A program made the position numbers and the translations under genes. Positions 2,749 to 29,452 of a stretch of DNA of 32,000 bases are shown in pieces. The stretch is from Zestosphaera tikiterensis (GTDB lineage: Archaea; Thermoproteota; Thermoprotei_A; Sulfolobales; NBVN01): the NCBI GenBank assembly GCA_003056265.1, contig NBVN01000001.1, positions 60,001-92,000 on the forward strand, in the 5' to 3' direction. Each line of letters opens with the position of its first letter. Position 1 is the first letter of the stretch. The notes under the pieces were generated by a model, which was not told where the DNA came from, did no database searches, and saw only the letters and a list, made by a program, of their open reading frames with translations.

Positions 2749-2777
2749 CTCCCTTACACTAAGCGTGATGATCGGGT

Positions 2778-8888: not shown

Positions 8889-11219
8889 TTAACCCCTATC
8901 AGCGGTTCCATACGACTCTATTATCTGGTAGAGCAACCTCATGCCTTGTGGGAGTTTTTCGACTTCATTTTTATGTAGCTTATTTCCAAGGATTGCCTTC
9001 ATTAGGGCTAGCTCCTCATTGCTGATTCCTTTGTAGTTTCCTTCGATAGCTTGTTTTGCTTTCTCCCTTGCTGATTCTATGTTGCCCATGAGGTAGTCTA
9101 AGACGGCCTCTTCCCAAAAGAGGTCGCCCTTTACGGCGTCCGAGAATTTGTTTCTTTTTGCTTCTTCCAGCTTGGTCCTAGCTGCCTTAAGATCTCCTTC
9201 CAATAGTGAGGTAAATATGGAGAGGGGTGAGGCTTGGACTTTAATGGTATCCCTTAGATCTCCTGGTAGCAGGTCTGAAACCTCCTCTATCTCCTCAAGT
9301 GTCTTCTTTAACTCGCTTATTTTACCTAGGTAGGCTTGCATAACGCCTATATGGACTAATGCGACAGCGTAATTGCCGAAATCATCTTTCTCTAACTCAA
9401 GTTGAGCTTCTCTCATCGAGTTATCCAACGCCCTCTCCATGTCATTTTCGTAGAATGCCAGTATTGTATCGCTCGCAAGTATAGTTGGTTCTATCTCCTT
9501 CTTCAGTTCAGATGGTAGCTTCTGGAATAAGGACTTTGATTCCTCTAATATCCTTCTTCCCTCATCCAAATTCCCGATCTTCATGAGCATGCCTGCCAAT
9601 AGGGCTGCGACCCTCGTATATAGGAACCTGTTGGATCTCAAGCCAACCAGGTGCCTTTTTATTATATCAACGCCCTTTCGGAGGTCTATTTCTTTAGTTG
9701 TGATTTCTACTAATGTTCTTTCTATTGCAAGCAGGGATTTTTGCTGTGTAGTTAGACCCTCACATTGTTGGAGTTTCTCAAGTACGCTATGGTAGAGGCC
9801 GAAACAGCAGGTCATCCAGCTCGAACCATGAAGAAGACGTTTCTCTATGATTGGGATGGCGTCTTTTATAAGACAGTTATCGGCCATTAGTAGAAGACCC
9901 CGCATCCTCTGCCTGATATCCGGGTGCTGGTTAAGCGCGAGAGCTACCAGTTCTACTAGGTGCTTTAGTCTCGGCTTGTTTGCAACTTTGGGGAGCCCCT
10001 CTACCCCCTCCCTAACCTTAACATCTTCACCTAATATCTCTATAAGGCCTAATCTTTCAAGCATGTTTAAACGCTTTAAACAAGCGGTTTGCCTTAAGGA
10101 GAGTATATTGCAGAGTATTTCAATAGGAAGTACCCCACCGCCGGCGATTAACAGTTCAAGTATGAGCTTGTCGTTCTCATCTATTACCTCCCCAATTTTC
10201 GACTCATAGTAGGATGCCACAACCCTGTTTATACATTCTGTTAGAGGTAGTCCTGCTGACTTATACAGGTTTATTATGCCGTGTATGAGGAGCGGTATCC
10301 CCCCGCTTAGCTTGGCTATTTGCAAGATGTCGTGCTGGGATAGATTAGTGCTCAGATCCTTTGAGAGCTTCTTCGTTAGCTCTATTGCTTCATTAGGAGG
10401 AAGTGGCTTGACCTCTATATCTAGTACTTTTCCTTTCCAGTAAGGGAGTTCCCTCTCTTTCAACTTCGATATTATGAAGACCCTCGCAGGGTATTCGATC
10501 CTCTCAACTAGGGATAATATGTATTCCTTGACCTGCTTGTTGACATCGTGGAAGTCGTCGAATACCAGAACCGTCGAATGTTCGTTTAAGAGGTTAGCAA
10601 GGGTACGGATATCGCTATTCATTACGGTCCTGACATCGAGGCCTGTTATGGTTGAAATGAGGAGTGTCAGATTTAGCTTGAGTGTCTCAGCCGTGTCAGA
10701 TACGATGGGTACATACCAGTATACTGGCTCTCTCTTCCTATAGCGCTTGATGTACCAGGCAGCAAGGCTCGATTTTCCAATCCCAGGGAGTCCCCATAAA
10801 TGTATTATTGGGACGTTGGATGAGTGTATGGTGTATAGCTCTTCTTCCCTGCCAACTAGCTCCTCACATTCTGGTATCACTGTATTCCTCAGCCTGATGA
10901 ACTCCCTGTGTTTTTCCTCATCTGAGAATGATACTTCTAGGGCCCCTCCATCAAATCTAATGCTAAATTCTTTTATATTTAACTCATGTAATTTAACATT
11001 TTTTTCTCCAACCCTCTTCCAGCAACTCCTTACTATCCCCAATTGCTCAAGGAGTTTGAGACGCCTTGAAATAGAGGATTCATTCAGTTTGAGAACGTCG
11101 GCGATTTCCCTGGTGTAGGAGGGTTTTATGCTTAATAACAGTAGAATTTGAATATTTATTTTATTTCTTATAGAGTTAATTATGATGTCAAGCTTCTCTG
11201 ATTCAGGTGACCGTGTCAA
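8889..11219 (-). CDS. STAND-class NTPase with an N-terminal ArsR-like wHTH and a C-terminal TPR-like helical repeat region
   Basis: The wHTH is YTREIADVLKLNESSISRRLKLLEQLGIV. Walker A is GLPGIGKSS and Walker B is VLVFDDFHD. A second wHTH-like segment (LKRLNMLERLGLIE) and about 300 aa of helical repeats follow. TTG start. Confidence 0.8.
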   Translation of the reverse strand: MTRSPESEKLDIIINSIRNKINIQILLLLSIKPSYTREIADVLKLNESSISRRLKLLEQLGIVRSCWKRVGEKNVKLHELNIKEFSIRFDGGALEVSFSDEEKHREFIRLRNTVIPECEELVGREEELYTIHSSNVPIIHLWGLPGIGKSSLAAWYIKRYRKREPVYWYVPIVSDTAETLKLNLTLLISTITGLDVRTVMNSDIRTLANLLNEHSTVLVFDDFHDVNKQVKEYILSLVERIEYPARVFIISKLKERELPYWKGKVLDIEVKPLPPNEAIELTKKLSKDLSTNLSQHDILQIAKLSGGIPLLIHGIINLYKSAGLPLTECINRVVASYYESKIGEVIDENDKLILELLIAGGGVLPIEILCNILSLRQTACLKRLNMLERLGLIEILGEDVKVREGVEGLPKVANKPRLKHLVELVALALNQHPDIRQRMRGLLLMADNCLIKDAIPIIEKRLLHGSSWMTCCFGLYHSVLEKLQQCEGLTTQQKSLLAIERTLVEITTKEIDLRKGVDIIKRHLVGLRSNRFLYTRVAALLAGMLMKIGNLDEGRRILEESKSLFQKLPSELKKEIEPTILASDTILAFYENDMERALDNSMREAQLELEKDDFGNYAVALVHIGVMQAYLGKISELKKTLEEIEEVSDLLPGDLRDTIKVQASPLSIFTSLLEGDLKAARTKLEEAKRNKFSDAVKGDLFWEEAVLDYLMGNIESAREKAKQAIEGNYKGISNEELALMKAILGNKLHKNEVEKLPQGMRLLYQIIESYGTADRG

Positions 11220-11729: not shown

Positions 11730-12479
11730 TCATCCCGCCTTAAAAGACAGGCTTTCGGTTATAAAAAAGTTTTGGAAATGGTTAACGCTCCCGCTATTTT
11801 TAATCTTTTTCACATTAGGTACAGCCATCACTACTCCTCCAATGAGCATTAGGGCTATGCCTGCATATAGCATGTTACTGTTATTAAACATTCCAGTGTT
11901 GATGTCGACGTTAAGTTTGTAGGATATTTTCCCTTCATCCGTATCATATCTGATGTTCTCCGCTTTGGCGGGTAGGTTTACGGTCAGAGTCTCCATGATT
12001 TTATAGTCTTCTCCCGCACCGTAAACGTGTGTGAAGACAAGCGTATTCCCGTACTGAGTAGTGAGAGTCAGTTTTTCACCAGGCTTTGCTATTGCAAGCT
12101 CCCACAAACCGTTGCCCTTATATACTGCGGCTCCCAGCAAGGTATACGTTGCTGTTAGCTTGTTATTAGCTTCATCAAGGCTTATGCTGAGATTTTCTAT
12201 TTGTTCAGGGGCAGCTCTCGGTCTTAGCTCTCTCACGAAAGTCGATATTGGATTATAGACTCGCTTGAACGCTATATACGCTTGAGCGCTGAACTTTATC
12301 TCCTCCCTCACATACGCTATACCGTTGTCTAACACATTTAGGGTTGTCACACCCTCTATCTCGAATACTGTGGGAGGCTGCACTTGCGCGTGGGAGACGA
12401 CACTAACAATAGCTATAAATAGCAATATCATAGGTAATGCGATTCCTAAAACTTTCTTATGCCCGAGCATATCGTTCAC
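11730..12479 (-). CDS. Secreted protein with a signal anchor and a C-terminal TM helix, co-operonic with the transglutaminase-like gene
   Basis: The N-terminal hydrophobic segment ends ..VSHAQV and a C-terminal TM (LYAGIALMLIGGVVMAV) follows. The start lies 3-12 nt after the upstream stop and is preceded by GGGGTG. Confidence 0.7.
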   Translation of the reverse strand: MNDMLGHKKVLGIALPMILLFIAIVSVVSHAQVQPPTVFEIEGVTTLNVLDNGIAYVREEIKFSAQAYIAFKRVYNPISTFVRELRPRAAPEQIENLSISLDEANNKLTATYTLLGAAVYKGNGLWELAIAKPGEKLTLTTQYGNTLVFTHVYGAGEDYKIMETLTVNLPAKAENIRYDTDEGKISYKLNVDINTGMFNNSNMLYAGIALMLIGGVVMAVPNVKKIKNSGSVNHFQNFFITESLSFKAG

Positions 12480-12482
12480 CCC

Positions 12483-14219
12483 TCAACCCCCTATTTGAAA
12501 TGTTTGAACGATTTGATCCACAGCAACTATCGTGTCCTGGTTAGCGACTGCTTGGTCAATGATATAGAATACTGCTAAACCATACCCCCGCACGTTCGTG
12601 TAGCGCGCTATTGCCATGTCTCCCGTGCCAAGTTTATATACAACGGTCTCTGCTGGAATATTTCCTAGGGCGCCGTTGGGGTTATCGGTTGTCACCTGAT
12701 ATCCCTTGTAGTATTCGTTGAAGACTGACTCTATGCTAGACTTTATATCGTTCCCGCTGAGGCTTCGACTCCATATTATTACTACTAGGATCATACCGTC
12801 TGGACTGGACAAGTCTACTTCGTAAGCATTTTCGTAAGCATAGTTCTCGGCTTCCCAATCCGCGGGCACAGTAATGGACCAGGGTAGATCGCCATAGGGA
12901 TTCACAATCTTTTTCGTGTTGGTTGGTGGCTGTGGTTGTGGTGGTTGAGGTTGTGGAGGTTGCGGCTGAGGCGGTTGAGGTTGCGGTGGCTGTGGCTGTG
13001 GTGGCTGTGGTTGTGGCGGTTGCGGCTGTGGTTGTGGAATCCCTCCTCCCCCTTGTCCTCCCCCTGCTTGTCCTCCCGCACCAGGCATAACACCAGGCAT
13101 AACGTATCCCCACTGTTCTAGAACGTTAGGCGGTAGTTCCGGCAGTTCCGGCGGTACTATTCCGGATGTTTGCGCTTTAACAACATCTAATATGAGGTGT
13201 GGGCCTTGGAGAGCTTCTTGAACTACTCTGGCACCTGTTTCAACAGCCTGCTGGAAACTAACCTTACCTCCTAGAGTGGTGCTCTCGATTGGCAGGAGTT
13301 GCCCGCTTGGGAGCACTATTATGGGTATCGCATGTCCCGGCATGAGAACTATGTAAGCTTTTAAGTTTTGACTCATCGCCACAGCAGCGAGGAATATTGA
13401 GGTGTCTATGCATGTACCGCTCCTATCCCGGATCACGTCTCTAGGGTATTTAACCCATTGAGATGCTTTACCTGACCAGAATGCTTCGGATTCTGTTTGG
13501 TATGTAATCCCGTTATATACGCTGAAGATCCACACCGCTTCGAGGAATGTGAGCGCTTCCTGATCGTTCAATGCCGCACCAGCACCCATACCTGTTAGCT
13601 TATTCGCCATAGCCGCATATCTTTCTACCACCGGGTCTTTCGGTGTGACCCACGCGGCTAATAGTTTATAGTTGCTGAATATATCTTGAAAGCTCCCAGT
13701 GTTCTCTTCCGGCGGTAGACCCGAGAATATGAAGTCGCGGCTTCCAAGAATGTTTATAGGCTTTGTTTTTGTTTCGGTAACTGGCTCACCGTCTGATTTC
13801 GTCTTGTACTCTATTTTCACGTAGAGCTTTCCTGGTGTGGCGGTCTGAAGGTTTGGCGCTTGTAAGAGTACGGGATAGTACAGATCTACTATCGCTCCAC
13901 CTGGAGGGATTAGCTTGTATTCCTTTGGTTCACTCCAGTCTGTTAGACCCTCGATTTTATAAGTTATTTTAACGTTATATAATGGGCCTGTTCCACTATT
14001 TTTAATGACTGTTTTAGCCACCCAATACCCTAGGCTTGGATTTCCATAAACTTTGTAAACCGCTGTCATGAAACTATCTATACTATATACTTTAACCTCT
14101 AAACGTCCTTCTCCTTCTCCTCCTCTAGCTATGTTCGGCAATGCCGCTAGAACTATTCCTAATACGAGAATCGCTACTCCTATAATTGTAAACATTTTAG
14201 CATTCTTCTCTATAGGCAA
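12483..14219 (-). CDS. Membrane-anchored transglutaminase-like cysteine protease-fold protein with a PQ-repeat linker
   Basis: N-terminal TM helix. The core GTCIDTSIFLAAVAMS...LMPGHAIPIIVL matches the Cys...His arrangement of transglutaminase-like domains. A Gly-rich stretch, a PQPQP repeat tract and a C-terminal beta-rich domain follow. Confidence 0.8.
   Translation of the reverse strand: MPIEKNAKMFTIIGVAILVLGIVLAALPNIARGGEGEGRLEVKVYSIDSFMTAVYKVYGNPSLGYWVAKTVIKNSGTGPLYNVKITYKIEGLTDWSEPKEYKLIPPGGAIVDLYYPVLLQAPNLQTATPGKLYVKIEYKTKSDGEPVTETKTKPINILGSRDFIFSGLPPEENTGSFQDIFSNYKLLAAWVTPKDPVVERYAAMANKLTGMGAGAALNDQEALTFLEAVWIFSVYNGITYQTESEAFWSGKASQWVKYPRDVIRDRSGTCIDTSIFLAAVAMSQNLKAYIVLMPGHAIPIIVLPSGQLLPIESTTLGGKVSFQQAVETGARVVQEALQGPHLILDVVKAQTSGIVPPELPELPPNVLEQWGYVMPGVMPGAGGQAGGGQGGGGIPQPQPQPPQPQPPQPQPPQPQPPQPQPPQPQPPQPQPPTNTKKIVNPYGDLPWSITVPADWEAENYAYENAYEVDLSSPDGMILVVIIWSRSLSGNDIKSSIESVFNEYYKGYQVTTDNPNGALGNIPAETVVYKLGTGDMAIARYTNVRGYGLAVFYIIDQAVANQDTIVAVDQIVQTFQIGG
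12923..13037 (-). repeat. In-frame tandem 15-nt repeat encoding about eight PQPQP units
   Basis: The plus strand reads as iterated ggYtgNggYtgNggN units. The copies differ mainly at synonymous positions. Confidence 0.9.
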
Positions 14220-15181: not shown

Positions 15182-16244
15182 CTACTTGATTCTACTGCGT
15201 AATATCTGGAACGCTACAGTAAGTGTGAAGAGGGTTATGATTAACGTAACGGCTATCAACGTTATGTATGCGTTAACCTGCTGTTTTCTTAAAGCTTTAG
15301 CTCCAACCATCTCTGGGTAATCGCTTAATAGTGCTAAGACTGCTATACTCGTGGTTTCAGTGTTGACGTCACCTAATATTTCTACGTCTTCTTCACTGCT
15401 TGCTATGTATTCTGTCGCGATGCCTCCGTAGACTGGATGCTGTGCTTTTGATATTATATTAACGCATTTACTATAGATGCCGTTGTGTTCATGTATTACT
15501 TTAGAGTCCACATGCTTTAAAGCGTTGTAGAGATATATGAAGAGGGCGCATTTATATGTCGAATAATACCTTACACCCTCCACCTCCTCACGTGCTTTAA
15601 CGACTTTATCGTAGAACCCGTAGCCATCCCACATAGAAGTAAGTCTCTGGAGGAGCTCCTCAGCTACGCTAACGTCCCCTTCGATAAGTGCGTCCAGCGC
15701 TCTATAGACTAGGAGATCCGCATATTCCCGCCAGTCATTTATTGAAGTTCCGTTATGTATTTCATACTTAATGATGAAGGTAGTCCCGAATTTCTTAGAG
15801 TATACGGAACCCAGCTCTAAGATCGTCGAGTCCCTAACTTCGTTAGGGATGTTCACCCCTAAAAGCACTTCATGAAGTCCGTTGAACCCCCCCGTTAAAA
15901 TATTCCTCAAGCTTTTCTTTAACGACGTAAGCGTAGCGTGAGTTAAGGATCTTAAGCGCTTCAACTGCGAGGAGATTATCGCTAGCAACCCATATAGTAA
16001 CGTTGTCCGGGTAAGCTTCCACAGCAGCTCTTAATAACCCCACCTCCGGAACGACCTGCTCTTCAAGAAAGGATTTCAACCTATCCCTATCTAAACCGAC
16101 GTTAACAACATCCATTGAAGCCCTAAAGAAAGTTGAAAACAACAGCTCTAACAACATAAGCACTAACGGTAATGCCATCCCCAACGACTTTAAGGCCTCC
16201 CGCAAATTCATAAAGTACAACCCGAAAGCACTTCTCCTAAACAT
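15182..16244 (-). pseudogene. Membrane-anchored alpha/alpha-barrel-like (six-hairpin glycosidase-like) protein gene interrupted by a frameshift in a C7/G7 run
   Basis: ORF 15870-16244 ends ..EEYFNGG and ORF 15182-15988 continues GGFNGLHEVLLG. The frames meet at the run of seven C at 15887-15893, and removing one base fuses them. The protein has both an N-terminal and a C-terminal TM helix. Confidence 0.65.
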
Positions 16245-18974: not shown

Positions 18975-20192
18975 TTACTTACCTAAAGCACGAGCGTAGA
19001 AACTCCAAGCGTTCGGATCTCCTTTATCCAGTCTCCAAACGGCTATCCCCTTAAGCTCATATTTCACGGCTATAAACGCTCTATAGTAGCCCATCTCGCC
19101 GTCTACGAAGTACGCAACTTCGTTGTTTAGCTCTAGAACTTTCTCCATTAATTCCTTATCTATCGTGTAGTTCTTACCGCTTTTTTCAATAAGTGCGAGC
19201 CAATCTGGATAAAGTAGCCAACCCCTAAATGTTCCATCTACGGACCATGTCTTCCCGTAATTGGGGATTCCTAAGATCAGCTTTTCAGGTGGTATGTATT
19301 GTAGCGCATATCTTACGCAGTCTTCAACCCACCAAATCGGGGCTACGGGCTTAGGCCCGCTTACCCATTCATAGAAATCGTACGCCATGATGATAACTGC
19401 GTCGACTTCCGTCTTCCCTAACTTGGCGTAATCGTAAGTTGCTGTATAGCTGGAGGGCCACTCCATCCTTTTAGCTGGTACGTCCACCGTAAGTATGAGT
19501 CCATTACTATGGAGTTTCTTAGCAAGCCTATCTATAAATGACGCGAATTCTGTTGAGTATTCAGGTATTGAGACTTCGAAGTCTATGTTGTAGCCGTAGT
19601 AGTTATATTTCTTAGCGAGGTATACCAGCTCAGCAGATAACGAATCTATCGCGTTGGGGTCCGTAACGAGTTTCCTCACCAACTCGCTATTTGCTGAGAC
19701 CAGCATAGGCATAAGCTTAACTCCTAAACTGTTTAGGAACTCTATAAACTCCCTATCCTCCGCACATCTTTTATCGTACTTACCCACACTTAAATCCTCT
19801 GTAAGGTAGTACCAGTCGGGAGACACTATATCTATTTGCCTTGAGAACCTTTCTAAAACACTCCATTCACTCTTATCGCATGTGCTAAGCATCCAAGCAA
19901 TCACGAGTTGATTCCCTTGCGGTATTATCACTTTTCTCTCAGTTATAGTTGATGTTGAAGTGGTAGTAGATGTGAAGGTAATGAACTCAGTCCTTGACAC
20001 AGTCTTAACCACCGTAATAGTTACTGTAGTTGGTAAGGTAAAAGTCTTAATATCTGTTTTAATGCTTGTAATAAGTTTCGTAACCTCAACTGTATGTGTA
20101 GGAAAGCTCGAGCCTAACCCATAACCTAAGGCAATGCCCAACAAAAGAAGTGTTGCTAAGCCAATTACGTAACCTAACTTCATATCAATCAC
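18975..20192 (-). CDS. Membrane-anchored GH18-like (chitinase-fold) protein
   Basis: N-terminal TM helix and a Thr-rich stalk. YGYNIDFE matches the D-x-E end of the GH18 DxxDxDxE motif, with the upstream Asp residues replaced. The ATG at 20183 is an alternative start. Confidence 0.7.
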   Translation of the reverse strand: MIDMKLGYVIGLATLLLLGIALGYGLGSSFPTHTVEVTKLITSIKTDIKTFTLPTTVTITVVKTVSRTEFITFTSTTTSTSTITERKVIIPQGNQLVIAWMLSTCDKSEWSVLERFSRQIDIVSPDWYYLTEDLSVGKYDKRCAEDREFIEFLNSLGVKLMPMLVSANSELVRKLVTDPNAIDSLSAELVYLAKKYNYYGYNIDFEVSIPEYSTEFASFIDRLAKKLHSNGLILTVDVPAKRMEWPSSYTATYDYAKLGKTEVDAVIIMAYDFYEWVSGPKPVAPIWWVEDCVRYALQYIPPEKLILGIPNYGKTWSVDGTFRGWLLYPDWLALIEKSGKNYTIDKELMEKVLELNNEVAYFVDGEMGYYRAFIAVKYELKGIAVWRLDKGDPNAWSFYARALGK

Positions 20193-20318
20193 AACATAAA
20201 TATTTACTACTAACTACTTATTAATTAAAAATTAGTGTGTTACGTACTGAACTTTAGGTGGGGTTATTAACGTGAGGAACTATGTTGTAGACCGCGGCGT
20301 TTTAATTTTTAAGTTTCG

Positions 20319-22307
20319 TTAGTCTTTCTCTTCAATGCCTTGAAGGTGTTTCAGGAACCAACGCGTTATGTGCTTCAGTCTTTCAACTCTATGTTTTGGT
20401 TTTCCGCTTCTGCTGAGTTCGTGGTTCTCTCCTGGGAATAGTACGAGGCGTGTTTCAACTCCTTTAAGCTTTAGAGCTGTGAAGAACTCTATTGCTTGGT
20501 CTAGCCAGCAACGGTAGTCTTCCATACTGTGGATTATCAAGGTCGGGGTTTTCGCGTTCTCCACGTGCATTATCGGGCTCTTCTCGAGGTATGCCTGCGG
20601 GTTCTTCCAAGGTGGTTGACCGCATCCTATCATTTCAGAGTTGAAGTAGAAGCCTATATCCGTAGTTCCGAATTTACTTATCCAGTCACTTATGGATCTT
20701 TGGGTTACCGCAGCCGCGAATCTATCTGTATGTGTGACTATCCAGTTGACCATGAACCCTCCGTAACTGCCTCCAGCAACGCCAACACGTTTCGGATCGA
20801 GTTTACCTCTATACTTAGTTAGTACGTAATCAACAGCTTCCATTAAATCTTGATAGTCTCTCTCCCCGAAGTGACATCTTATATCAGCGAATTCCTCGCT
20901 ATAGCCGTCACTACCTCTGGGGTTGGTATACACTACTGCGAATCCTTTATGTGCGAGTAGGTGGAATTCGAAGAAGAAGCCGTCTCCATACATGGTTTTA
21001 GGGCCGCCGTGTATATAGAGTATCCAAGGCAGTTCCTCACTCTTCACAGCTTCTTTAGGGGGCCAAAGCACCCAACCATCTATTTCAACGCCGTCGCTTG
21101 CTTTAAACGTGAAGTGCTTAGGCTTCGTTAAGTTGAAGGACTTAACGAAGAATTCGTTGAAGTTGGTTAACTTGGTTAAGCTACTAGCTTTAAACGCGTA
21201 GAGTTCGGCAGGCTCGATGGGGCTCATGGATGTGAAGACTGCGAGGTCTTCACTTGAAGAAACGTCAAACTCGTCCACGCTTCTTCCGTCGAGTTCAACA
21301 TACTTCTCCAGCCCTCCATCTAAAGACGCACGGTAGAGTGTGACTTTACCGGCGTCGGGTACTAAGAAGTATATATGGCCGTCCTGAAGCCCGCCTCTAG
21401 AGACCCACTTAAGCGTTGGTGAGCAGCTTTTCCACCTAGCGTCACTCCCTAAAGTGTTTAACACGTTTCTATCTAGTCCTTTGGTTAAAGACTTAAACTC
21501 TCCGGAGTTGAGGTCATATACGTATACCCTATTATGCGAGGCGAAACCTCTTTCCCCGCTAACGTTCCTGCCTATAAAGGCTATCTTACTACCGTCAGGA
21601 CTCCACGTAAGCGCCGATACTGAATAACCCTTTATAGGGAGTTCAACACGTTCTCCCGACCCTACGTCAAGTATGAACACCCTAGATTCGTAAGGCTTTA
21701 ATTCATCGACGGATGCTGCGTAGGCAAGCTTTCTGCTGTCAGGACTCCAAGCTAGGGTGGTGACGTTGTAGTCGCCGTTAGTTAATTGTTGTGTGATGCC
21801 GCTTGACGTATCTACGATGAAAATATGTTTTCTGAGGTTGTAGGTGAATCCCTCGCCGTTATTCCATATCGGTATTCTGTCTATTACCTTCACGTCTTCA
21901 TGAACCTCACCCACCTTGGATATTACGGCGATTTTCTTAGAGTCTGGAGACCATCTATACTCTGCTATACCGCCTTTAAAGTAGGCAAGTTTCCATGGCT
22001 CTTTAGACTCAAGAGACGCTATGTATATGTTCGCCCCTTTCTCGCCTTCTAATAAACCACGCCGCGATATAAACGCTAGCTTCCTACCGTCAGGACACCA
22101 CTGCGGGCAGGTGTCTTCAGGCCCGCTAGTGAAGGGATATACCTCACCACTTCCTACGTTTGCTATCCATACAGCTGATTCATATAAGTTCTTCTCAAGG
22201 TTTATCTTGGCCGTGAGGAACGCAACCATCTCTAAAGACGGGTGGAGGACGGGACTTGACACTAGAACAAGCTTTGAAAGATCTTCGTAGTTTAGGAGGC
22301 TAACCAA
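20319..22307 (-). CDS. S9-family serine peptidase (acylaminoacyl-peptidase / prolyl oligopeptidase type)
   Basis: The N-terminal beta-propeller carries repeated WSPDG/WSPDS motifs. The nucleophile elbow is GVAGGSYGG, followed by a downstream Asp (SMEDYRC) and His (GENHELS). Confidence 0.9.
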   Translation of the reverse strand: MVSLLNYEDLSKLVLVSSPVLHPSLEMVAFLTAKINLEKNLYESAVWIANVGSGEVYPFTSGPEDTCPQWCPDGRKLAFISRRGLLEGEKGANIYIASLESKEPWKLAYFKGGIAEYRWSPDSKKIAVISKVGEVHEDVKVIDRIPIWNNGEGFTYNLRKHIFIVDTSSGITQQLTNGDYNVTTLAWSPDSRKLAYAASVDELKPYESRVFILDVGSGERVELPIKGYSVSALTWSPDGSKIAFIGRNVSGERGFASHNRVYVYDLNSGEFKSLTKGLDRNVLNTLGSDARWKSCSPTLKWVSRGGLQDGHIYFLVPDAGKVTLYRASLDGGLEKYVELDGRSVDEFDVSSSEDLAVFTSMSPIEPAELYAFKASSLTKLTNFNEFFVKSFNLTKPKHFTFKASDGVEIDGWVLWPPKEAVKSEELPWILYIHGGPKTMYGDGFFFEFHLLAHKGFAVVYTNPRGSDGYSEEFADIRCHFGERDYQDLMEAVDYVLTKYRGKLDPKRVGVAGGSYGGFMVNWIVTHTDRFAAAVTQRSISDWISKFGTTDIGFYFNSEMIGCGQPPWKNPQAYLEKSPIMHVENAKTPTLIIHSMEDYRCWLDQAIEFFTALKLKGVETRLVLFPGENHELSRSGKPKHRVERLKHITRWFLKHLQGIEEKD

Positions 22308-22468
22308 GACATAGACACCATTAAATAACTACGTCTAAGTTTTAAAACTAATTTCTCCATATAATATTATTAAGAAATTCTCGATTACTTCAGGCTTCTT
22401 TAAACCCTGCTGATGTTTCAGGTAAGTCCGCTTTTATATGGAAATACATTGAAAGCTTGGTGTGTTAA

Positions 22469-22957
22469 ATGGTTGCTGAATTGCTAGCTATTCTAGCAGC
22501 TTTATTCTTTGGCTTAAACCTAGCGACCTCTAGGAGAGGTCTCCTCCACGCTTACGCATATACCGGTGTGTTTCTAAGTTTAGTTATTGGCTGCCCTATG
22601 TACTTACTTACCTCCTTACTTGTCGGTGAGTTTAAGGACTTCACATTCGACGTTTATGGGTTGATCGCAGTTTCCTTAGCTGGACTGCTGCACTTCAGCT
22701 TGGGTAGATATCTCCTATATAGAAGCGTTCAGTTAGTAGGCGCTAACGTTTCAGGAACTATAACCGCTTCCAGCGCGTTATACTCAACTATTTTGGGGGT
22801 CCTATTACTTAAGGAGGAGTTATCAGCTCTTGCCGCTGTTGGAGTTTCATTAATTATAGTTGGAGTTACTATGGTATCGCTTAGGGGTTTGTCGGCGTTT
22901 AAATCGCTTAAAGGGGTTTCCTACGCGTTACTTACTAGCGTCATATTCTCGGTGACC
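22469..22957 (+). pseudogene. EamA/DMT-family transporter gene, 5' fragment (interrupted by the mobile element)
   Basis: First five-TM EamA repeat. After ..SYALLTSVIFSVT the reading frame runs into element sequence and stops at 22985-22987. Confidence 0.75.
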
Positions 22958-23000
22958 GCTCACCTCAACCGTGCCCTCATATATTAAACTGTGTTAGGCA

Positions 23001-23118
23001 CGGCTGGGGTCATTACGGCTATTATCCTCCCGACCACCCTACGGGAGCCGAACTCCCCTCAGATAATCGGGGTTCATCTAGATTCATCAGCCTCACTCAT
23101 TCATTGGCTTCAGACTCC
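23001..23118 (+). repeat. GC-rich structured element, copy D, forming the left-end region of the TnpB element
   Basis: Colinear similarity to the reverse complement of 17404-17515 and to 750-849. It lies between the insertion junction and the RHH gene. Confidence 0.5.
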
Positions 23119-23180
23119 AATAATATGAGGAGGGAAAGCTTTATAAGTCTTACTTCTTTCACTTCTTATAGGTGTCATAC

Positions 23181-23336
23181 ATGGTTAGGAAGACTATTGA
23201 AGTACTAGATGAGCTATGGAGAGAATTCGAGATTGAAGCTGTAAAGAAGTTTGGTCATTATGGTGCTATTAAGAAAGCGACAGAGGAGGCGATTAAGCTA
23301 TGGCTAGAGAAACAGAAGAAGAAAGAGCAACAATAG
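23181..23336 (+). CDS. Small ribbon-helix-helix (CopG/VapB-like) protein encoded inside the element
   Basis: 51 aa, below the ORF-track cutoff: MVRKTIEVLDELWREFEIEAVKKFGHYGAIKKATEEAIKLWLEKQKKKEQQ. An N-terminal beta-strand is followed by two helices. It overlaps the TnpB-like ORF by 37 nt. Confidence 0.6.
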   Translation: MVRKTIEVLDELWREFEIEAVKKFGHYGAIKKATEEAIKLWLEKQKKKEQQ

Positions 23337-24331
23337 TGGGAAAGCTAAGCCTAGATGAGGTCTCTCTCAGCAAGCTAATCAACTTAATGAGACTCTTCAG
23401 AGATGCCGTGGAATATGCGCATGCCCTACTGTTCAGAGTAGGAGTCGAGGAAAGCGAAGTTAAAAGGAAGGTAACAGGTATCCTATCTAATGCTTGGTAC
23501 GCTAACTCTGCTATAAAGGTAGCTAAGCTGTATAAGGAGCAAGAGAGGATTAAGCTGAGGAAACCGCTACTGTATTCTGTTGGCTGTTCAAGTGAGAAAG
23601 GTAATCGAAACATTAGGTTAGTGGCTACAGATAAAGCTCTAATCAAGATACCTCATGCGGATGGTAGACATGAGTGGATTAAAGCTACTGTCAAGTTCGG
23701 ACGAAGACACCTACCACTAATTCAGGAATTGATGACTGGTAGCTACAGTTATGGAGCAGGTATAACAATAAAGCTCAAAAGTAAGAGAGAGAATTGGAGG
23801 AAGGTATTCAGGAAGAGACTATATCTTTATCTAAATATTCCCATAGAGCTTTACCTAAAGTACTTTGAGAAGAAGCACAAGGTTCAGCCAGACGCTAACT
23901 TTTACGCTGGCTTTGACTTTAATGTTGATAGAATAAACATGGCCATAGTAGACTCATATGGGAGATTAAGAGATGTGAGGAATGCTCATTTTCCAGAAGT
24001 TGTAACGTTGCCTAGAGAGAAGGCTAAAGTGATTAGGCAAGAATCACTATCAAGACTTCTAGAATATGCTGTTGCTCATGGTGTAAGGTATTTTGCTGTT
24101 GAAAAGCTTAAGAGACCTAGTGAAAATCATGGAAAAGTTGGTAGGTGGTCTTTGAGGGAATACTTACAACAGATGAAGATACTTGTTAAAAAGGTAAATG
24201 GAGTCTTAATTGAGGTTAATCCAGCATATACCTCAATAGATGCTACAGCGGTAGCACTAAGTAGGAGAATTGACATTCATACTGCCTCAGCTTACTTGAT
24301 AGCCCTACGTGGTATAGAAAGATACGTTTAA
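23300..24331 (+). CDS. tnpB: TnpB-like (IS605 OrfB family) RuvC-fold protein lacking the zinc-ribbon insertion
   Basis: 343 aa. The RuvC-I Asp lies in AGFDFNVDRINMAIVD, the RuvC-II Glu in YFAVEKLK and the NPAYTS motif follows. The RuvC-III Asp lies in RIDIHTASAYLIALRG. Only about a dozen Cys-free residues separate NPAYTS from the last Asp, where CxxC..CxxC normally sits. Confidence 0.8.
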   Translation: MARETEEERATIVGKLSLDEVSLSKLINLMRLFRDAVEYAHALLFRVGVEESEVKRKVTGILSNAWYANSAIKVAKLYKEQERIKLRKPLLYSVGCSSEKGNRNIRLVATDKALIKIPHADGRHEWIKATVKFGRRHLPLIQELMTGSYSYGAGITIKLKSKRENWRKVFRKRLYLYLNIPIELYLKYFEKKHKVQPDANFYAGFDFNVDRINMAIVDSYGRLRDVRNAHFPEVVTLPREKAKVIRQESLSRLLEYAVAHGVRYFAVEKLKRPSENHGKVGRWSLREYLQQMKILVKKVNGVLIEVNPAYTSIDATAVALSRRIDIHTASAYLIALRGIERYV

Positions 24332-24359
24332 CACAAAAAGTCATAATTTAAAGTTTCTA

Positions 24360-24740
24360 CCGCTCTTAGTTAAGATTGGTACTACAGGCTTAAAAACACC
24401 GATTCTTTCGATATTTATCTCATATTTAATTGCCTTAGCTTCATACATACCGCTGTTGATTTTTAAATCTGAATTACGGCGTGAGCTAAGGGGTTTTAAC
24501 GTTATGCCGTTAACTTCTTTAATGGTGGCGGCGTTAGCCGTTAATATAGCGCAACTCATTCGCTACTACGCTTTAAGCTTAGGTAATGTTAGCGTAGTTA
24601 CGCCGATAGTTTCTACGAATCCTTTATTTGGTATCGTGTTTTCATACTTAATTAATAGGGAGGTAGAGGACTTCAGCCTTAAGTTAGTGTTTGGGTCGTT
24701 GATTATGATCGTCGGGATTTTCCTTATAACTGCTACATAG
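24360..24740 (+). pseudogene. EamA/DMT-family transporter gene, 3' fragment
   Basis: The frame is open from the junction: PLLVKIGTTGLKTPILSIFISYLIALASYIPLLIF...SLGNVSVVTPIVSTNPLFGIVFSYLIN...IMIVGIFLITAT. This is the second EamA repeat. Confidence 0.75.
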
Positions 24741-24913
24741 CAGTAACGCAGTGCCTGAAGTATTTCATGGAAAAATACGTCAAAATAGTGATGTAGGTCT
24801 ATATCTATTGAGTGAGGGCTTTAAAGATTGTTAAGCTCTGGCAAGGGTGGATTAGGTAATTACTTAAGTAAAGTTTATTTTACGTGATGAAACCTTATTG
24901 AGGTGGTGTAGGT

Positions 24914-25522
24914 TTGGTTCACGTTTATGAGGATATTCACTTAGTTAAGGACAGCTATGTTAACGTATATCTCATAGTAAGAGGTGCTGATGTGGTTTTA
25001 ATAGATGCGGGGTTGGAGTCTACGTGGTCTTTAATAAAAGACTATCTTAATACGTTAGGTTTAACTTTTAAGGATTTAACGGCTGTTGTTATAACTCACC
25101 ATCATAGAGATCATGTAGGCAGTTTAAAGTACGTCGTTCAAAACAGCAATGCCGTAGTAGCTGCTCACGTAGATGAGATTGAGTTAATTAAGTCTAGGTC
25201 TGGAGTGAATGTAAACGTAGCTTTAAGAGATGGGGACATGTTTAAAGGTTTGAAAGTTGTTCACACACCTGGACATACACCCGGGCATATATGCCTACTT
25301 GACTTAAAGACTAAGTCCTTATTCGTGGGTGATTTAGTAGTTGAGGAAAACGGAGAACTTAATGAAATACCCCATCATTACTCGATAGACCCTATGAAGA
25401 ATAGGGAGGCTATAAAGAAACTTAGGTATGTAGATTTCAATAATTTAATGCCTAGCCATGGCGAGCCCTTGCTGCATGTTGGTAAGGAAAAACTTGAGGA
25501 GCTTATAACGAAGTTAGTTTGA
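24914..25522 (+). CDS. Metallo-beta-lactamase-fold hydrolase
   Basis: 202 aa. HxHxDH motif in ITHHHRDHVGS, downstream His in HTPGHTPGH, and Asp in FVGDL. Confidence 0.85.
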   Translation: MVHVYEDIHLVKDSYVNVYLIVRGADVVLIDAGLESTWSLIKDYLNTLGLTFKDLTAVVITHHHRDHVGSLKYVVQNSNAVVAAHVDEIELIKSRSGVNVNVALRDGDMFKGLKVVHTPGHTPGHICLLDLKTKSLFVGDLVVEENGELNEIPHHYSIDPMKNREAIKKLRYVDFNNLMPSHGEPLLHVGKEKLEELITKLV

Positions 25523-25544
25523 GTGTGTTTCAGCAGGTCATGCG

Positions 25545-26315
25545 TTATTTAGGTATGCCCACAGCTTTTAAGAAGAGTTTAGCGCCTTCTATCAAGTACC
25601 GCGTGTCGTGAGACAGCGTTATGAAGTTAAAACCCATCCTCAACTTCTCCGCGGCGTCTTCAGGGGAGTTGGACATTATGCCAGCTATTTTACCTACCTT
25701 AAGGGTTGCTGTGAGTACTTTATTCAAAGCTTCGATATATGCTGGGTTTTTAAAGTCTCTGTAAGCCCCTAAAGACGCTGAAAGATCGCTTGGACCTATG
25801 AAAGACCCTGTAACTCCATCAACGTCTATTATCTCTTCTATGTTCTTCACCCCCTCAACCGTTTCTATCTGAGTCAGCAGTATGAAGCTTTCATTCCATC
25901 TCTCAAAATATTCTTTAGCGTCGCGAACGCCGTACATCACACACCTCCTAGGCCCGGTTCCTCTAATACCTTCAGGCGGGTATTTCATCGCCTTAACGGC
26001 TTTCTCAGCTTCTTCTCTAGTGTTTATCCAAGGAACTATAACTCCTTCAGCACCTAAATCCAGTACCTGCTTAATAATTACGAAGTCGTTCCACGGCACC
26101 CTCACTATAGGTACGATATCAGTGCCTCTAAGCGGCATCATCAGAAACTCAACGTCTTTAATGGTTAGCGGCGCGTGTTCCATATCAAAAACGAACCAAT
26201 CGAAAGGCAGGTTAGAGAGGATTTCAGTTACTTCTGGATGCGAGATAGTTATCCAAACACCGAATGTTGGTTCACCTTTAGAAACCTTACTTAGAACCCT
26301 ATTGATTAAAGGCAT
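25545..26315 (-). CDS. HpcH/HpaI-family aldolase
   Basis: GVWITISHPEVTEILSNLPFDWFVFDMEHAPL.. with downstream VRVP and QIET motifs typical of class II 2-keto-3-deoxyacid aldolases. The start is taken at MPLINRV (26315) rather than at 26378. Confidence 0.8.
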   Translation of the reverse strand: MPLINRVLSKVSKGEPTFGVWITISHPEVTEILSNLPFDWFVFDMEHAPLTIKDVEFLMMPLRGTDIVPIVRVPWNDFVIIKQVLDLGAEGVIVPWINTREEAEKAVKAMKYPPEGIRGTGPRRCVMYGVRDAKEYFERWNESFILLTQIETVEGVKNIEEIIDVDGVTGSFIGPSDLSASLGAYRDFKNPAYIEALNKVLTATLKVGKIAGIMSNSPEDAAEKLRMGFNFITLSHDTRYLIEGAKLFLKAVGIPK

Positions 26316-26430
26316 TTCTACCGACCTTGATTTACATGCATGAAATAATAAAAAGTTTTGGGCATATCCAAAGAGCACTGGTGGAACAGCGTATGAGAGG
26401 TTCCTTGCTACATGAGGAAGTAGTATTAGC

Positions 26431-27783
26431 TTATACAGCGTTAACTAATAGGTCCCTGAGCTTCTTTATGTTATCTTCCTCTTTTTCACCCAGAGGCTCT
26501 ATTTCAACCCTGTAGAGAACATACTTGCAGCTACCATTGCAGGCAGTGATCTCTACTGGTTTCTCCAGCTCCAGTTGACCAACAACTGCTTCATCCTCAT
26601 CTTCAGAGCTGCCTTCAGAGGCCTCCTGCTCGTCTTTTGGTAAATGTATTAGCAATCCTATTCCAGCTCCTAGTAGGACCATATAGCTTATGGCCTGGTA
26701 TACTCCCTTGCCAATATATCCAGGTAAACTGGAAAACTTTAGCTCGATTACAACATTTCTCGACTCCCAATGGACTAGTATATCTGGCCTCACCTTTAAT
26801 GGTGCTTCAAGATCCTGGTTGAAGCATACTACTACATCGCCTACACCCGACTTCCCGAGTTTCCCACACTGGTTGATTGCAGGTCTTTTGCCTTGCTCCC
26901 TAAGTACCCTTAGTAGCAGGTATAGCAGGTAGAGCTCATATAGTTTATCGCTGAGGAGGTTTACGTCCATGCTATCATGCTCTCTCCTCGATATCCTTTC
27001 AAGCACTTTTATAGTTAGCTCTCTGTATTCTTTCTCGGTGGATGGATCAAATAGATACTTGTATACCACGTTATCTAGTAGCTTGTCAACCCACTCAGGC
27101 CTCCACGGGGTATTAGATACCTCGTTAGTCAGCTCGTAGATATGGTCGAGAGTTTCAGGGCCATAGAGGTTTCCAGGTATGTATACTAGAAAGCTTTGTC
27201 CAACGGCATGTTCAAGCCGCTCCAGTGTTTGACAAGCCTCCTCCCTAGCACTCCTTAATCCAGGTAGCTTTGCTATCTCTTCAGGCGACAGACCTGTCCC
27301 CCCGGTTTCTGCAGAGCCTCCTCTCTCCAGTAAGCTACATATGTTGCTAAGCTCGCTTATCACGTAGTCTACAATGGCTCTCAATAATAGGTTCTCTGGT
27401 GAAGCCGAGGTGTAGCTTACAACTGCCTGGACGACGGGCCTGTAGTGTATATAGTTCACTATGGTTTTAGGCCAGTTGATGATCCCTCTTATAGACCACT
27501 CCTCGATATCCTCATAGATCCTCTTCTTAAGCACTATGTTACTAGCCTCCTCTAGTATCCCGGCCAGCTCCTCACTTATCTTCTTAAACCTATATGTGTT
27601 GAAAATAAGGGTGATCAAATCCTCTATGCTCTTTAAGGGTTCCAGCCTCTTCCCAGCTGCCTCATCTCGGCTAGACTTGAAGAGGCTTAGTGGATCATTA
27701 TCTAGTAGTAGGTAGAGATCAACGAGTTTTTCACTCATGTATTCGATATATTTAGTCCTTCTGTCCCTGCTGCTCGAAGACAC
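26431..27783 (-). CDS. mcrC: McrC-like subunit with a C-terminal PD-(D/E)xK nuclease motif
   Basis: VRPDILVHWESRNVVIELKFS..GVYQAISY fits the PD..ExK pattern. It lies directly downstream of, and overlaps, the McrB-like gene. The GTG at 27783 or the ATG at 27738 could be the start. Confidence 0.7.
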   Translation of the reverse strand: MSSSSRDRRTKYIEYMSEKLVDLYLLLDNDPLSLFKSSRDEAAGKRLEPLKSIEDLITLIFNTYRFKKISEELAGILEEASNIVLKKRIYEDIEEWSIRGIINWPKTIVNYIHYRPVVQAVVSYTSASPENLLLRAIVDYVISELSNICSLLERGGSAETGGTGLSPEEIAKLPGLRSAREEACQTLERLEHAVGQSFLVYIPGNLYGPETLDHIYELTNEVSNTPWRPEWVDKLLDNVVYKYLFDPSTEKEYRELTIKVLERISRREHDSMDVNLLSDKLYELYLLYLLLRVLREQGKRPAINQCGKLGKSGVGDVVVCFNQDLEAPLKVRPDILVHWESRNVVIELKFSSLPGYIGKGVYQAISYMVLLGAGIGLLIHLPKDEQEASEGSSEDEDEAVVGQLELEKPVEITACNGSCKYVLYRVEIEPLGEKEEDNIKKLRDLLVNAV

Positions 27784-29452
27784 ATTTCATCAAGCCCTCT
27801 ACCTGCCTTCTAACGCTTTCATTCCACAGCCTTGATAAAGGTAGTGCAGCCTCCACGCACATTCTCAGGACATTATCCACACGATCCTTATCCTTTTCAA
27901 ACCTCTTCCTATCTTCCTTGTTGAGCCTTACATAGTAGGCTGCAAATGTCTTGGCAGCGAGGTAGAGGCTCGCAGGACTAATAGTCACTAGTGCTCCTGA
28001 CAGCCTACTCCTACTCTCCCCCTCAGCCTTCTCATCAACGGGTTTTCCGCACTTGGTGTAGAGAACCCTTAGCTTATCATTAATCAATTCTTTAACCTTC
28101 TCTAGGACTTCATCAATATTCTCATTGGTTGATAACTCATTGTTTCTCTCTAACTCTTCCTTAAGGTTTTTATATATCTTGCCGAGCAACTTGTCAATAT
28201 CGCTTGGAGGGTTAACTTCGACAATAGCGAATCTACGTGCAAAGGCCTCGCCCACGGTGAATAGGTTTCTTGCATCAACGAAGTTCATTGTGACTATAAT
28301 GCGGAAATCTTCTGGGACTCGGTAGCCGGTTCCATCTTCAGACTTCTCGAGCTTCTTATTTTGACCAATGGCGAATTCAATGAATTTCTTAGCCACTTCA
28401 TCGGCTCGTCCATTTTCCACATACTCATTAATTTCATTTACTAGGTCTAGGGGTATGATCCTCTCATACGGGTTATGGCTTGAGAATATTAGGAAGAATT
28501 CCCCAAAGGCCTTATCTACATCAGCCCTGTTAACCTCGTCAATTATAAGGTATGCTCCCTTATACTTCATACCATTATTGCCTCCTGTAGACGCATCCTG
28601 CCCGCTTAGGTTCCTAGCCACTTCTCCCTGGCTCTTGCCGCTTCTCCCGTACTTCTCCCTGTTTTCTATATGTCTAACGAGGGCCCTCAGTAAGTAGCCA
28701 GACCTCCACTTAACACTACCAGACTCTAGGGTTACCCCACCTATCAAGTCATACCTGCTCCAATGAGCAGTAGCAACCACATAGTATGGCTCGAAGCCTC
28801 GTTTCTCGGTAACCATCTTAGCTAGCGTGGTCTTACCAGTGCCCGGAGGGCCAACTAGTAAAACATTCAATCCTGCGTCAAGCAGACCGTTAATGAAATC
28901 CACTAACCCATCCTCCACCGCTAATTTCTCTGATTCCTCAGGCTCTTCATAACCCATCCTTATGATCATTTCAGCGACCTCGCTGTCAAGTGGAGCTATA
29001 TAAGATTGAGGAGGTTTATAATCGGGAATTTTTTCGAGAGGAACCTTCTCACGGAATTCTTTGAAATCCCCTAACACCACGAAGAAATAGAATTCGAAGT
29101 TCTTCAACCACTTATTAGCAAAACTTTCATAATCGTTACTCCAAATACCCATATTCTTTAATTTATCCCTAAGCTCATTTTTACTCAGCTCAGTGCACTT
29201 CTGCTTTACTTTCGAGAACCCGATGAACCGTCCTCTTAGCTCTTGATTAAGTGCTTTACTAGTTATATAGTGGATTATACAGTCCCCAGGCTCCAACTTC
29301 GTCATACTTCTCCATTGAGAATCTTTAGGACTCCAGAGGCATTTACCAATATGACCGGGATAAGGTGCTCCAGTAATTTCCACATAGTACTTCTTACATT
29401 TATCCATTAGTTCCACCAGATGTCCTACTTCCATTATTATGGTACTGGCCAT
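27752..29452 (-). CDS. mcrB: McrB-like AAA+ GTPase with an N-terminal PUA/EVE-like domain
   Basis: Walker A is LLVGPPGTGKTT and Walker B is YLIIDEVNRADVDKAFGEFF. The McrB-specific IIVTMNFVD corresponds to the MNTAD signature, and ARRF is also present. The N-terminal 150 aa (GKCLWSPKDSQWRSMTKLEPGDCIIHY...RGRFIGFSKV) resemble PUA-like modified-base readers. Confidence 0.85.
   Translation of the reverse strand: MASTIIMEVGHLVELMDKCKKYYVEITGAPYPGHIGKCLWSPKDSQWRSMTKLEPGDCIIHYITSKALNQELRGRFIGFSKVKQKCTELSKNELRDKLKNMGIWSNDYESFANKWLKNFEFYFFVVLGDFKEFREKVPLEKIPDYKPPQSYIAPLDSEVAEMIIRMGYEEPEESEKLAVEDGLVDFINGLLDAGLNVLLVGPPGTGKTTLAKMVTEKRGFEPYYVVATAHWSRYDLIGGVTLESGSVKWRSGYLLRALVRHIENREKYGRSGKSQGEVARNLSGQDASTGGNNGMKYKGAYLIIDEVNRADVDKAFGEFFLIFSSHNPYERIIPLDLVNEINEYVENGRADEVAKKFIEFAIGQNKKLEKSEDGTGYRVPEDFRIIVTMNFVDARNLFTVGEAFARRFAIVEVNPPSDIDKLLGKIYKNLKEELERNNELSTNENIDEVLEKVKELINDKLRVLYTKCGKPVDEKAEGESRSRLSGALVTISPASLYLAAKTFAAYYVRLNKEDRKRFEKDKDRVDNVLRMCVEAALPLSRLWNESVRRQVEGLMKCVFEQQGQKD

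Follow-up and report, generated by a model that had tools for sequence, protein, structure and literature searches.

A mobile RHH-TnpB element in an EamA gene of Zestosphaera tikiterensis and the predicted divergent RNA at its left end that pairs with the flanking target

TnpB is the ancestor of Cas12 and a source of compact genome editors, and to our knowledge every characterised TnpB reads its guide from its own 3′ end. Among its relatives, the ribbon-helix-helix (RHH)/MazE-TnpB systems have been described as an archaeal branch of the major clade RIIIr-4, present in Euryarchaeota and Crenarchaeota, in which a small RHH or AbrB/MazE gene is followed by tnpB, the RuvC-III aspartate is changed to histidine and the C4 zinc finger is missing (Altae-Tran et al., PNAS 2023, PMC10691335). 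The same study listed this branch among the non-mobile clades, proposed a toxin-antitoxin pair and named a long 3′ untranslated region as the possible guide (PMC10691335). In another setting, bacterial IS605 elements encode an RHH protein, Arc, by which the promoter of the transposon is repressed (Moon et al., bioRxiv 10.64898/2026.09.24.754181). Here we describe an RHH-TnpB element inserted in an EamA transporter gene of the archaeon Zestosphaera tikiterensis, within a stretch of 32,000 nucleotides (contig NBVN01000001.1, positions 60,001 to 92,000) that is called the window below and whose numbering is used unless a contig is named. The element belongs to RIIIr-4, in its archaeal RHH/MazE-TnpB clade, and is thus no new family; the module has already been described (PMC10691335). 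What is new relative to the literature is the mobility of the element, the position and strand of its conserved RNA, the link to an orphan Rfam family, and an RNA-flank pairing that tracks target specificity.

The element and the gene that it interrupts are made up as follows.

22469..22957, plus strand: 5′ half of the EamA gene, codons 1-163 (Pfam EamA, 9.6e-16), collinear with the empty allele on contig L083
22955..22957, plus strand: target trinucleotide ACC, part of the flank and not of the element, present in the empty allele
22958..24359, no strand assigned: inserted element of 1402 bp, missing from the otherwise 97-98% identical L083 allele
24360..24361, plus strand: CC adjoining the right end, target DNA in the window copy by comparison with L083; in the family, element end or 2-bp duplication
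24360..24740, plus strand: 3′ half of the EamA gene (Pfam EamA, 1.1e-11), placed by the L083 comparison

When 22469-22957 and 24360-24740 are joined, they encode a 289-aa protein with two EamA repeats. A search with this protein found P0238, which is also 289 aa long, shows 98% identity and reads FIFSVTPLLVKIG across the proposed junction, and EamA orthologues down to 34% identity align through this junction without a gap. The source of P0238 is contig L083 from a Joint Genome Institute (JGI) metagenome, which carries the intact 289-aa EamA gene and thus represents the empty allele. The blocks 19476-22957 and 24360-26359 of the window are contiguous in this contig and show 97.4-97.9% identity to it. 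The empty site reads GTGACC/CCGCTT (on the minus strand, ...AAGCGG/GGTCACCGAG...), while the filled site reads GTGACC-GCTCACC...GTTTCTA-CCGCTC, and moving the break by one base either way brings it into conflict with one of the two junctions. Since one placement alone fits, the insertion comprises exactly 22958-24359, that is, 1402 bp, without target duplication. These data bear out the first-pass annotation of this stretch, which had read the locus as a clean, recent and duplication-free insertion with borders defined to the base, whose deletion would restore a 289-aa two-repeat EamA protein. A 7-bp repeat, ACCGCTC, found at both junctions (22955-22961 and 24359-24365), was considered as a target duplication and rejected, because the reading frame is lost when the repeat is collapsed and the empty allele rules such a duplication out. 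The first polymorphism to the right of the insertion lies at 24365, where CCGCTC in the window corresponds to CCGCTT in L083, a synonymous leucine change.

Copies of the element are also found outside Z. tikiterensis. Copies from Archaeoglobus profundus (L001) and from several metagenome-assembled genomes of Thermoprotei match it over the full 1402 bp with about 71% identity, the homology ending at both borders, and the element ends are conserved across phyla. Furthermore, five sets of near-identical units (88-96% identity, 1.38-1.54 kb each) occur in unrelated flanks, namely L009/L010, L011/L012, L018/L025, L028/L034 and L044/L048/L053. The RHH-TnpB element is mobile, and its insertion in the window is recent and precisely bounded. 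The earlier suggestion of a domesticated module conflicts with this mobility, as seen in the filled and empty alleles and in the near-identical units, and also with the evidence that the same annotation had put forward. A DNA pattern scan and a protein scan of metagenome contigs found no further copies or insertion sites of the exact window element. Regarding the means of movement, the element has room for two open reading frames (ORFs) only, and no copy has space for a transposase. Neither a Y1 (TnpA) nor a serine recombinase gene is present in the element, as had been claimed, or elsewhere in the window, and no linked Y1 TnpA gene was found in the neighbourhoods of the relatives inspected. 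Because no transposase is encoded in the element, it is presumably supplied in trans.

The two genes of the element and the putative control region in front of them are listed below.

23140..23147, no strand assigned: TATA-like box TTTATAAG, purine-rich on both sides, conserved in the family alignment
23152-23158 and 23161-23167, plus strand: two direct repeats of ACTTCTT between the TATA-like box and the start codon, read from the sequence
23181..23336, plus strand: RHH gene, 51 aa, with an ATG conserved in relatives and matches of the family profile
23300..24331, plus strand: TnpB-like gene, 343 aa (Pfam PF27229 SSO2105_N, precomputed), with D206, E268 and H327 and without a zinc ribbon

The 343-aa protein is 100% identical to a Z. 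tikiterensis protein. It had no match in local Pfam-A or PDB sequence searches, and its NCBIfam matches were to TnpB only and sub-threshold; a literature search on SSO2105 returned nothing useful. An AlphaFold model built on 94 homologues reached a predicted local distance difference test score (pLDDT) of 89. When this model was searched over its whole length with Foldseek, the best PDB matches were Cas12f, Cas12k, ISDra2 TnpB and Fanzor, with E values of 1e-9 to 1e-7 and query-normalised TM-scores of 0.5-0.62. Going by the model, the protein shares the WED/REC/RuvC fold with Cas12f and ISDra2 TnpB. It had been described as a TnpB relative lacking the zinc ribbon, and this was confirmed in that the zinc ribbon is missing from all 94 homologues, which also have no cysteines in the stretch from NPAYTS to D-x-H, and no aligned member has Cys pairs. 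The companion claim, that the RuvC D/E/D positions are kept, stands for D206 and E268, which are invariant in the 94 sequences. It does not stand for the third position, which had been placed in RIDIH: here the invariant residue is H327, its column holds Asp in two more distant relatives, P0191 and P0216, and conservation of D325 is confined to the family. The alignment thus indicates that the third RuvC position is a histidine and that the D-E-D triad is not intact. N208, D210/R211 and H260 are invariant as well. Distant relatives of 510-525 aa from the same broad clade (25-27% identity) occur on a Thermus oshimai plasmid (L084) and in the Thermus phage phiLo (L085), where no adjacent RHH/AbrB or TnpA gene is annotated.

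The features published for the RHH/MazE-TnpB branch of RIIIr-4 are found in the window element, that is, an upstream RHH gene in an archaeon, the Asp-to-His change, and the absence of a C4 zinc finger between RuvC-II and RuvC-III. In contrast to the published description of the RHH/MazE-TnpB branch, however, the window element is mobile, its 3′ region is 28 nt long and unstructured, and its conserved RNA lies upstream on the other strand.

The 51-aa protein alone matched no Pfam or NCBIfam model. An alignment of 21 members of the small-protein relatives matched RHH_6, RHH_3 and RHH_1 and, in PDB, the omega repressor and the SSV 56B RHH protein, in agreement with the earlier call of an RHH ORF that overlaps the TnpB-like ORF by 37 nt. 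At the loci examined, the small gene always lies upstream of the TnpB-like gene and is of the RHH or the AbrB/MazE type; the recurrence of the RHH-TnpB adjacency in other archaea, which the first-pass annotation had raised, was likewise seen, with AbrB/MazE-type genes taking turns with the RHH genes. Three AbrB types match Pfam MazE_antitoxin above cut-off, and another AbrB-like type, in a deep family branch, reads MPEEYVFHARISK...IYIPKELSEKM.... A deep branch (L039, L040, L042, L044 and L051-L057) carries a different small gene, MPEEYVFHARISKTSHGLLCIYIPKELSEKM..., which lies about 150-250 nt upstream of the TnpB-like start without overlapping it and is AbrB-like by eye, without a Pfam match. 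The TATA-like box at 23140-23147, which is palindromic (AGAAAAnnTTATAAnnTTTTCT) in several family members, is a candidate bidirectional archaeal promoter, and its spacing would suit both an RHH-TnpB mRNA and an RNA starting about 25 nt leftwards. By analogy with Arc of bacterial IS605, the ACTTCTT repeats are a candidate RHH operator, and the RHH protein most likely represses the element's own promoter.

To the left of this promoter region lies the predicted RNA, whose parts are as follows.

22955..23116, minus strand: predicted non-coding RNA of about 160 nt, running leftwards; 5′ end near 23116 estimated from promoter spacing, 3′ end at or beyond 22955
23089..23109, minus strand: 5′ hairpin, kink-loop-like, AGCC-AAU-GA...GA-GGCU, with a covarying 4-bp stem (helices 1-2)
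23027..23087, minus strand: central long hairpin, matching Rfam RF02814 (Sso133, Sulfolobus sRNA133) with 28.1 bits, E 8e-4
23010..23019, minus strand: 5′ strand of the putative 3′ kink-turn, GCCGU at 23019-23015, bulge AAU at 23014-23012 and GA at 23011-23010
22962..23009, minus strand: terminal hairpin adjoining the left end (inverted repeat I9), with compensatory changes in 10/11 pairs of helix 6
22955..22961, minus strand: 3′ strand of the putative 3′ kink-turn, GA at 22961-22960, GC at 22959-22958 (the last bases of the element) and GGU at 22957-22955 (flank)

From the left end to the promoter, 170 nt stand out as an island of high G+C (0.62 versus about 0.40), and an nhmmer DNA profile picked up this non-coding region of the left end in members with as little as about 35% protein identity. 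Its minus strand folds with -69.6 kcal/mol (z -3.9), compared with -55.4 kcal/mol (z -2.6) for the plus strand. RNAalifold on 33 aligned family sequences gave 30 pairs, 25 of them with compensatory changes. Pair statistics were calculated for 31 pairs (the alifold pairs plus the 5′ hairpin) in the 33 sequences, with 500 shuffles and slid partners as controls. The results showed compensatory changes in 26 of the 31 pairs; 90.6% of the cells were paired, versus 67.9% after shuffling, and the covariation score was 0.615, versus 0.21 for the shuffles and 0.10-0.14 for the slid partners. None of the 500 shuffles matched the observed pairing or covariation values. On the minus strand, 157 cells are G-U, while only 36 would be possible on the plus strand (cells paired, 90.6% versus 78.7%), and one U-G pair in the central hairpin is invariant in 33/33 sequences. 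Because the G-U pairs favour it, the minus strand is the RNA strand.

The central hairpin matches the whole 73-nt model of RF02814 on the predicted strand, and the homologous domain of the relative L068 scores 57.9 bits, which is above the gathering score. Rfam lists Sso133 as a small RNA (sRNA) only, with no function or context given, and literature searches returned nothing useful on Sso133 as an RNA and nothing relevant on TnpB together with L7Ae. The proposed left-end RNA is about twice as long as Sso133, to which it adds the kink-loop-like 5′ hairpin and a putative 3′ kink-turn/hairpin domain reaching the flank. At least two G-A-rich internal loops carry a kink-turn signature (stem, 3-nt bulge, GA opposite GA), and N5-(G/A)AU-GA...GA-N5 is present in 31/33 members; these putative kink-turns are read from the sequence signature, and we interpret the 5′ hairpin motif as a probable kink-loop. 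A C/D-box sRNA was rejected as an identity for the left-end RNA, since the Rfam matches to sR14 and sR1 are insignificant (E 0.08-0.6) and the box spacing is wrong. Contig L040 holds a second, partial copy of the left-end RNA (3776-3849, minus strand) in the opposite orientation, about 230 nt past the right end of the full element.

The putative 3′ kink-turn of this RNA reaches across the element boundary. In the window it reads GCCGU-AAU-GA...hairpin...GA-GC/GGU, so that the partners of the internal 5-mer are the final 2 nt of the element and the first 3 nt of the flank. Since the last helix uses flank bases, the RNA has to run on beyond the left boundary for its structure to be complete. This pairing was parsed directly in 31 members. 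Positions 2 and 3 of the 5-mer pair with flank bases 2 and 1 in all 31, as internal CC with flank GG (n=16) or as internal GG with flank CC (n=15), and position 4 pairs with the last element base in 30/31, including one compensation from G-C to A-U. On a neighbour-joining tree of the proteins, at least two of the CC/GG switches are independent. In the DNA, the trinucleotide before the left end is ACC (once GCC) in 13/13 close and mid-distance copies and RGG in another group, and the RNA-flank pairing explains why this ACC (or RGG) is fixed on the left. The arrangement shares the geometry of a canonical omega-RNA, in which the flank follows a scaffold that stops at the transposon end, although the window has it on the opposite strand and at the element's other end.

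The right end gives a different picture from the left, as the strong subterminal hairpin of the left end (I9) has no conserved counterpart there.

24300..24359, plus strand: right-end block ending in GTTTCTA, with sequence conserved beyond coding need

Only 28 nt separate the stop codon from the right border, and the first-pass annotation had expected a guide scaffold inside the 3′ end of the ORF and a guide starting at 24360. This expectation failed. On the plus strand, the last 180 nt of 12 diverse elements gave -0.58 kcal/mol in RNAalifold, with no consensus fold and no covarying pair, and the last 80 nt of diverse elements gave no consensus fold on the minus strand. An omega-RNA at the ORF 3′ end or the right end was rejected, as the consensus fold is absent on both strands, and the sole conserved structured RNA is that of the minus strand at the left end.

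As for the right junction, the left trinucleotide (RCC or RGG) recurs there as the element's last base plus CC or GG, and the next base rightwards is C in 23/25 copies. Two target genes, an integrase-like gene in L001 (261 + 223 codons) and a methyltransferase gene in L027 (...FLAKLA/RLLKNGG...), close only if the 2 nt at the right junction leave with the element. Either the family end is ...ACC, which mimics the target in the manner of IS200/IS605, and the window copy lacks 2 nt of the C4 run, or a 2-bp duplication is made in some events only. L007 was considered as a third case for this boundary and is void, because orthologues show that 17 aa are missing at its junction. Around positions 2148 and 3561 of L007, the GH99-like target gene lacks these 17 aa. 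Each of the two junctions falls at an ACC^CC-type site, a pattern that points to an adjacent deletion, mediated by the transposon, from one such site to the other. At 2650-4055 and 4684-4755 of L001, the A. profundus copy interrupts the tyrosine-integrase-like gene beside a tRNA gene, and thus landed within another integrated element. Terminal inverted repeats were rejected as a feature of the window copy, being significant in some subfamilies only (L068, L023 and L028). In L068 (2068-2104 versus 3527-3564), and also in L023 and L028, the first ~35 nt of the left end recur in inverted form, set in from the right end by 11-13 nt, with z up to 9.5.

These features can be compared with those of other transposon-borne systems. 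The window element resembles the TnpB-only (IS1341-type) members of IS200/IS605 in its TnpB-fold protein, the lack of terminal inverted repeats and, in the window copy, of a target duplication, the insertion 3′ of a short fixed motif, and a structured region that stops exactly at the transposon boundary. It differs in lacking TnpA, the zinc ribbon and an omega-RNA over the ORF 3′ end, in a divergent RNA gene at the other end, in an extra DNA-binding gene and in a right end without a conserved hairpin; the earlier statement that it is not a plain IS605 element agrees with the missing TnpA. With the Arc elements it shares a small RHH protein inside a TnpB-carrying insertion sequence (IS), adjoining an intergenic promoter that possibly fires both ways, whereas those elements carry TnpA and a canonical TnpB, and Arc and tnpA usually form a pair on the other strand from tnpB (bioRxiv 10.64898/2026.09.24.754181). 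The window RHH gene, unlike Arc, overlaps the TnpB-like gene, would be co-transcribed with it and is interchangeable with AbrB/MazE. The IscB/IsrB omega-RNAs and the IS110 bridge RNA are likewise non-coding RNAs encoded upstream of the nuclease or recombinase gene, in a left-end non-coding region touching the boundary, but they lie on the same strand as the gene. Moreover, IscB is unrelated to TnpB, IS110 uses a serine nucleophile, and bridge RNAs read at least 10 target bases.

The reading that we favour, with a probability of about 0.55, is that of a non-autonomous, active or recently active IS of RIIIr-4 that combines an RHH repressor, a D-E-H nuclease and a divergent guide RNA that reads the flank. 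Three working parts would be set around one central promoter region: the RHH protein, which would repress the promoter of the element; the zinc-ribbon-less TnpB-fold nuclease with its putative D-E-H RuvC site; and an RNA of about 160 nt, of the Sso133 family and with several kink-turn-like motifs, whose transcription would lead away from the genes and leave the element at the left end. Its last helix would form only with a GG (RNA sense) outside the element, matching the ACC target. No alternative conserved RNA is present at the 3′ end of the gene, and we propose the left-end RNA as the guide; it would be the equivalent of an omega-RNA whose scaffold ends at the transposon boundary and whose gene, unlike that of a canonical omega-RNA, lies at the left end and on the minus strand. 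The guide would start at or just beyond 22957 and read leftwards, and with this flank-derived 3′ tail the nuclease may find the empty site, for homing and retention. The left flank of the window copy shows several differences from L083, starting 16 nt outward; the perfect match of a flank-derived guide of this copy to the empty allele would therefore end after 15 nt.

Several points weigh against this reading. We know of no TnpB relative that uses an RNA from the opposite strand, and a scaffold helix ties up the initial 2-3 bases of the putative guide, unlike in known omega-RNAs. The RNA ends in Z. tikiterensis are those of a predicted RNA, and the 28.1 bits of the window RNA fall below the RF02814 gathering score of 44 bits. 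The right junction is not uniform, as 2 extra nt have to be removed in L001 and L027 and not in the window copy, and no transposase was found for the element, with none encoded and no Y1 gene beside the relatives inspected. Finally, the published analysis saw no recent mobility in the RHH/MazE-TnpB clade (PMC10691335).

A question raised by these findings is whether other explanations account for the same locus. According to the type II toxin-antitoxin proposal (Altae-Tran et al. 2023), the nuclease TnpB serves as a toxin and the RHH/MazE protein as an antitoxin that blocks guide-target binding, in a non-mobile module passed on by horizontal transfer. The small RHH or AbrB/MazE gene upstream of and overlapping the nuclease gene, the patchy distribution and a published co-folding model (PMC10691335) are consistent with such a pair, the match to type II systems being one of gene order only. 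However, with its conserved ends, fixed target and filled/empty polymorphism the unit has the behaviour of a discrete transposable element, and the proposal leaves the conserved left-end RNA and the flank pairing unexplained; we consider it unlikely as a full account, although an addiction function could coexist with mobility, as the toxin-antitoxin and mobile readings are not exclusive. The canonical arrangement, with an omega-RNA scaffold over the 3′ end of the TnpB-like ORF and a guide from 24360, has on its side that all characterised TnpB systems work in this way, and conservation of the element's last ~60 nt exceeds what the coding sequence requires. In this hyperthermophile, however, the right-end region shows no rise in G+C, merely 28 nt follow the stop codon, and the 12 diverse right ends gave neither a fold nor covariation (see above), which makes this arrangement highly improbable.

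The left-end structure might instead be a single-stranded DNA (ssDNA) signal, with an IS608-like hairpin and pairing between guide and cleavage-site sequences, that serves a Y1 TnpA acting in trans, while the TnpB-like protein uses another RNA or none. The hallmarks of IS200/IS605 would then fall into place, namely no target duplication in the window copy, insertion 3′ of a fixed trinucleotide and an internal sequence that pairs with the cleavage-site region, and the right ends of L001 and L027 seem to end in the trinucleotide of the target. What argues for an RNA, and makes a DNA signal quite unlikely, are the 157 G-U cells, including the invariant one, the tandem G-A kink-turn signatures, the variable apical expansions and the match to an Rfam family derived from transcripts; in addition, the right end has no matching hairpin, and no TnpA is linked to any copy examined. 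A more radical alternative makes the TnpB-like protein and the left-end RNA the transposition machinery itself, with the internal 5-mer splinting the element end (..AC) to the target (GGU..) in the manner of a bridge RNA of IS110. In favour of this, no copy has a transposase gene, the RNA helix spans the exact donor-target junction with a specificity that switches with the target, the RuvC site is remodelled (D-E-H plus the invariant N208, D210/R211 and H260), and L007 shows an adjacent deletion between two target-like sites. But no TnpB or Cas12 relative is known for strand transfer, merely 2-3 target bases are read, and the argument is purely inferential, so that we regard it as very unlikely.

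Other features of the window lie apart from the element. At 26431-29452 on the minus strand, the ORF of an AAA_5 (dynein/McrB-like) ATPase (27752-29452) overlaps the start of a 450-aa ORF without a Pfam match (26431-27783), and the two are possibly a McrBC-like pair. PIN-domain ORFs are found at 4766-5548 and 7822-8274, near a 776-aa ORF with helix-turn-helix and AAA (ATPase_2/AAA_16) domains at 8889-11219, all on the minus strand; long ORFs beside this group, at 6083-7423, 11730-14219 and 15182-15988, have no Pfam match.

Returning to the favoured reading, we tentatively suggest, as a doubtful but instructive generalisation, that RHH/MazE-TnpB is a distinct kind of RNA-guided mobile element with a divergent guide RNA of several kink-turns that leaves through the opposite transposon end, in which two internal bases, CC or GG, set the insertion dinucleotide by means of a helix that bridges donor and target; in its strongest form, an RNA splint and a D-E-H TnpB would carry out transposition without TnpA. 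The proposal corrects the published view of the clade as immobile, and it raises the question of what moves an element that encodes no transposase. If it is true, an orphan family of Sulfolobus sRNAs would gain a function, and the clade would offer a scaffold of about 340 aa that is zinc-finger-free and heat-stable, with a target motif apparently set by two RNA bases. Overall, if a whole archaeal clade keeps its kink-turn RNA in a gene of its own, on the opposite strand and at the far side of the element, the known design space of TnpB would widen.

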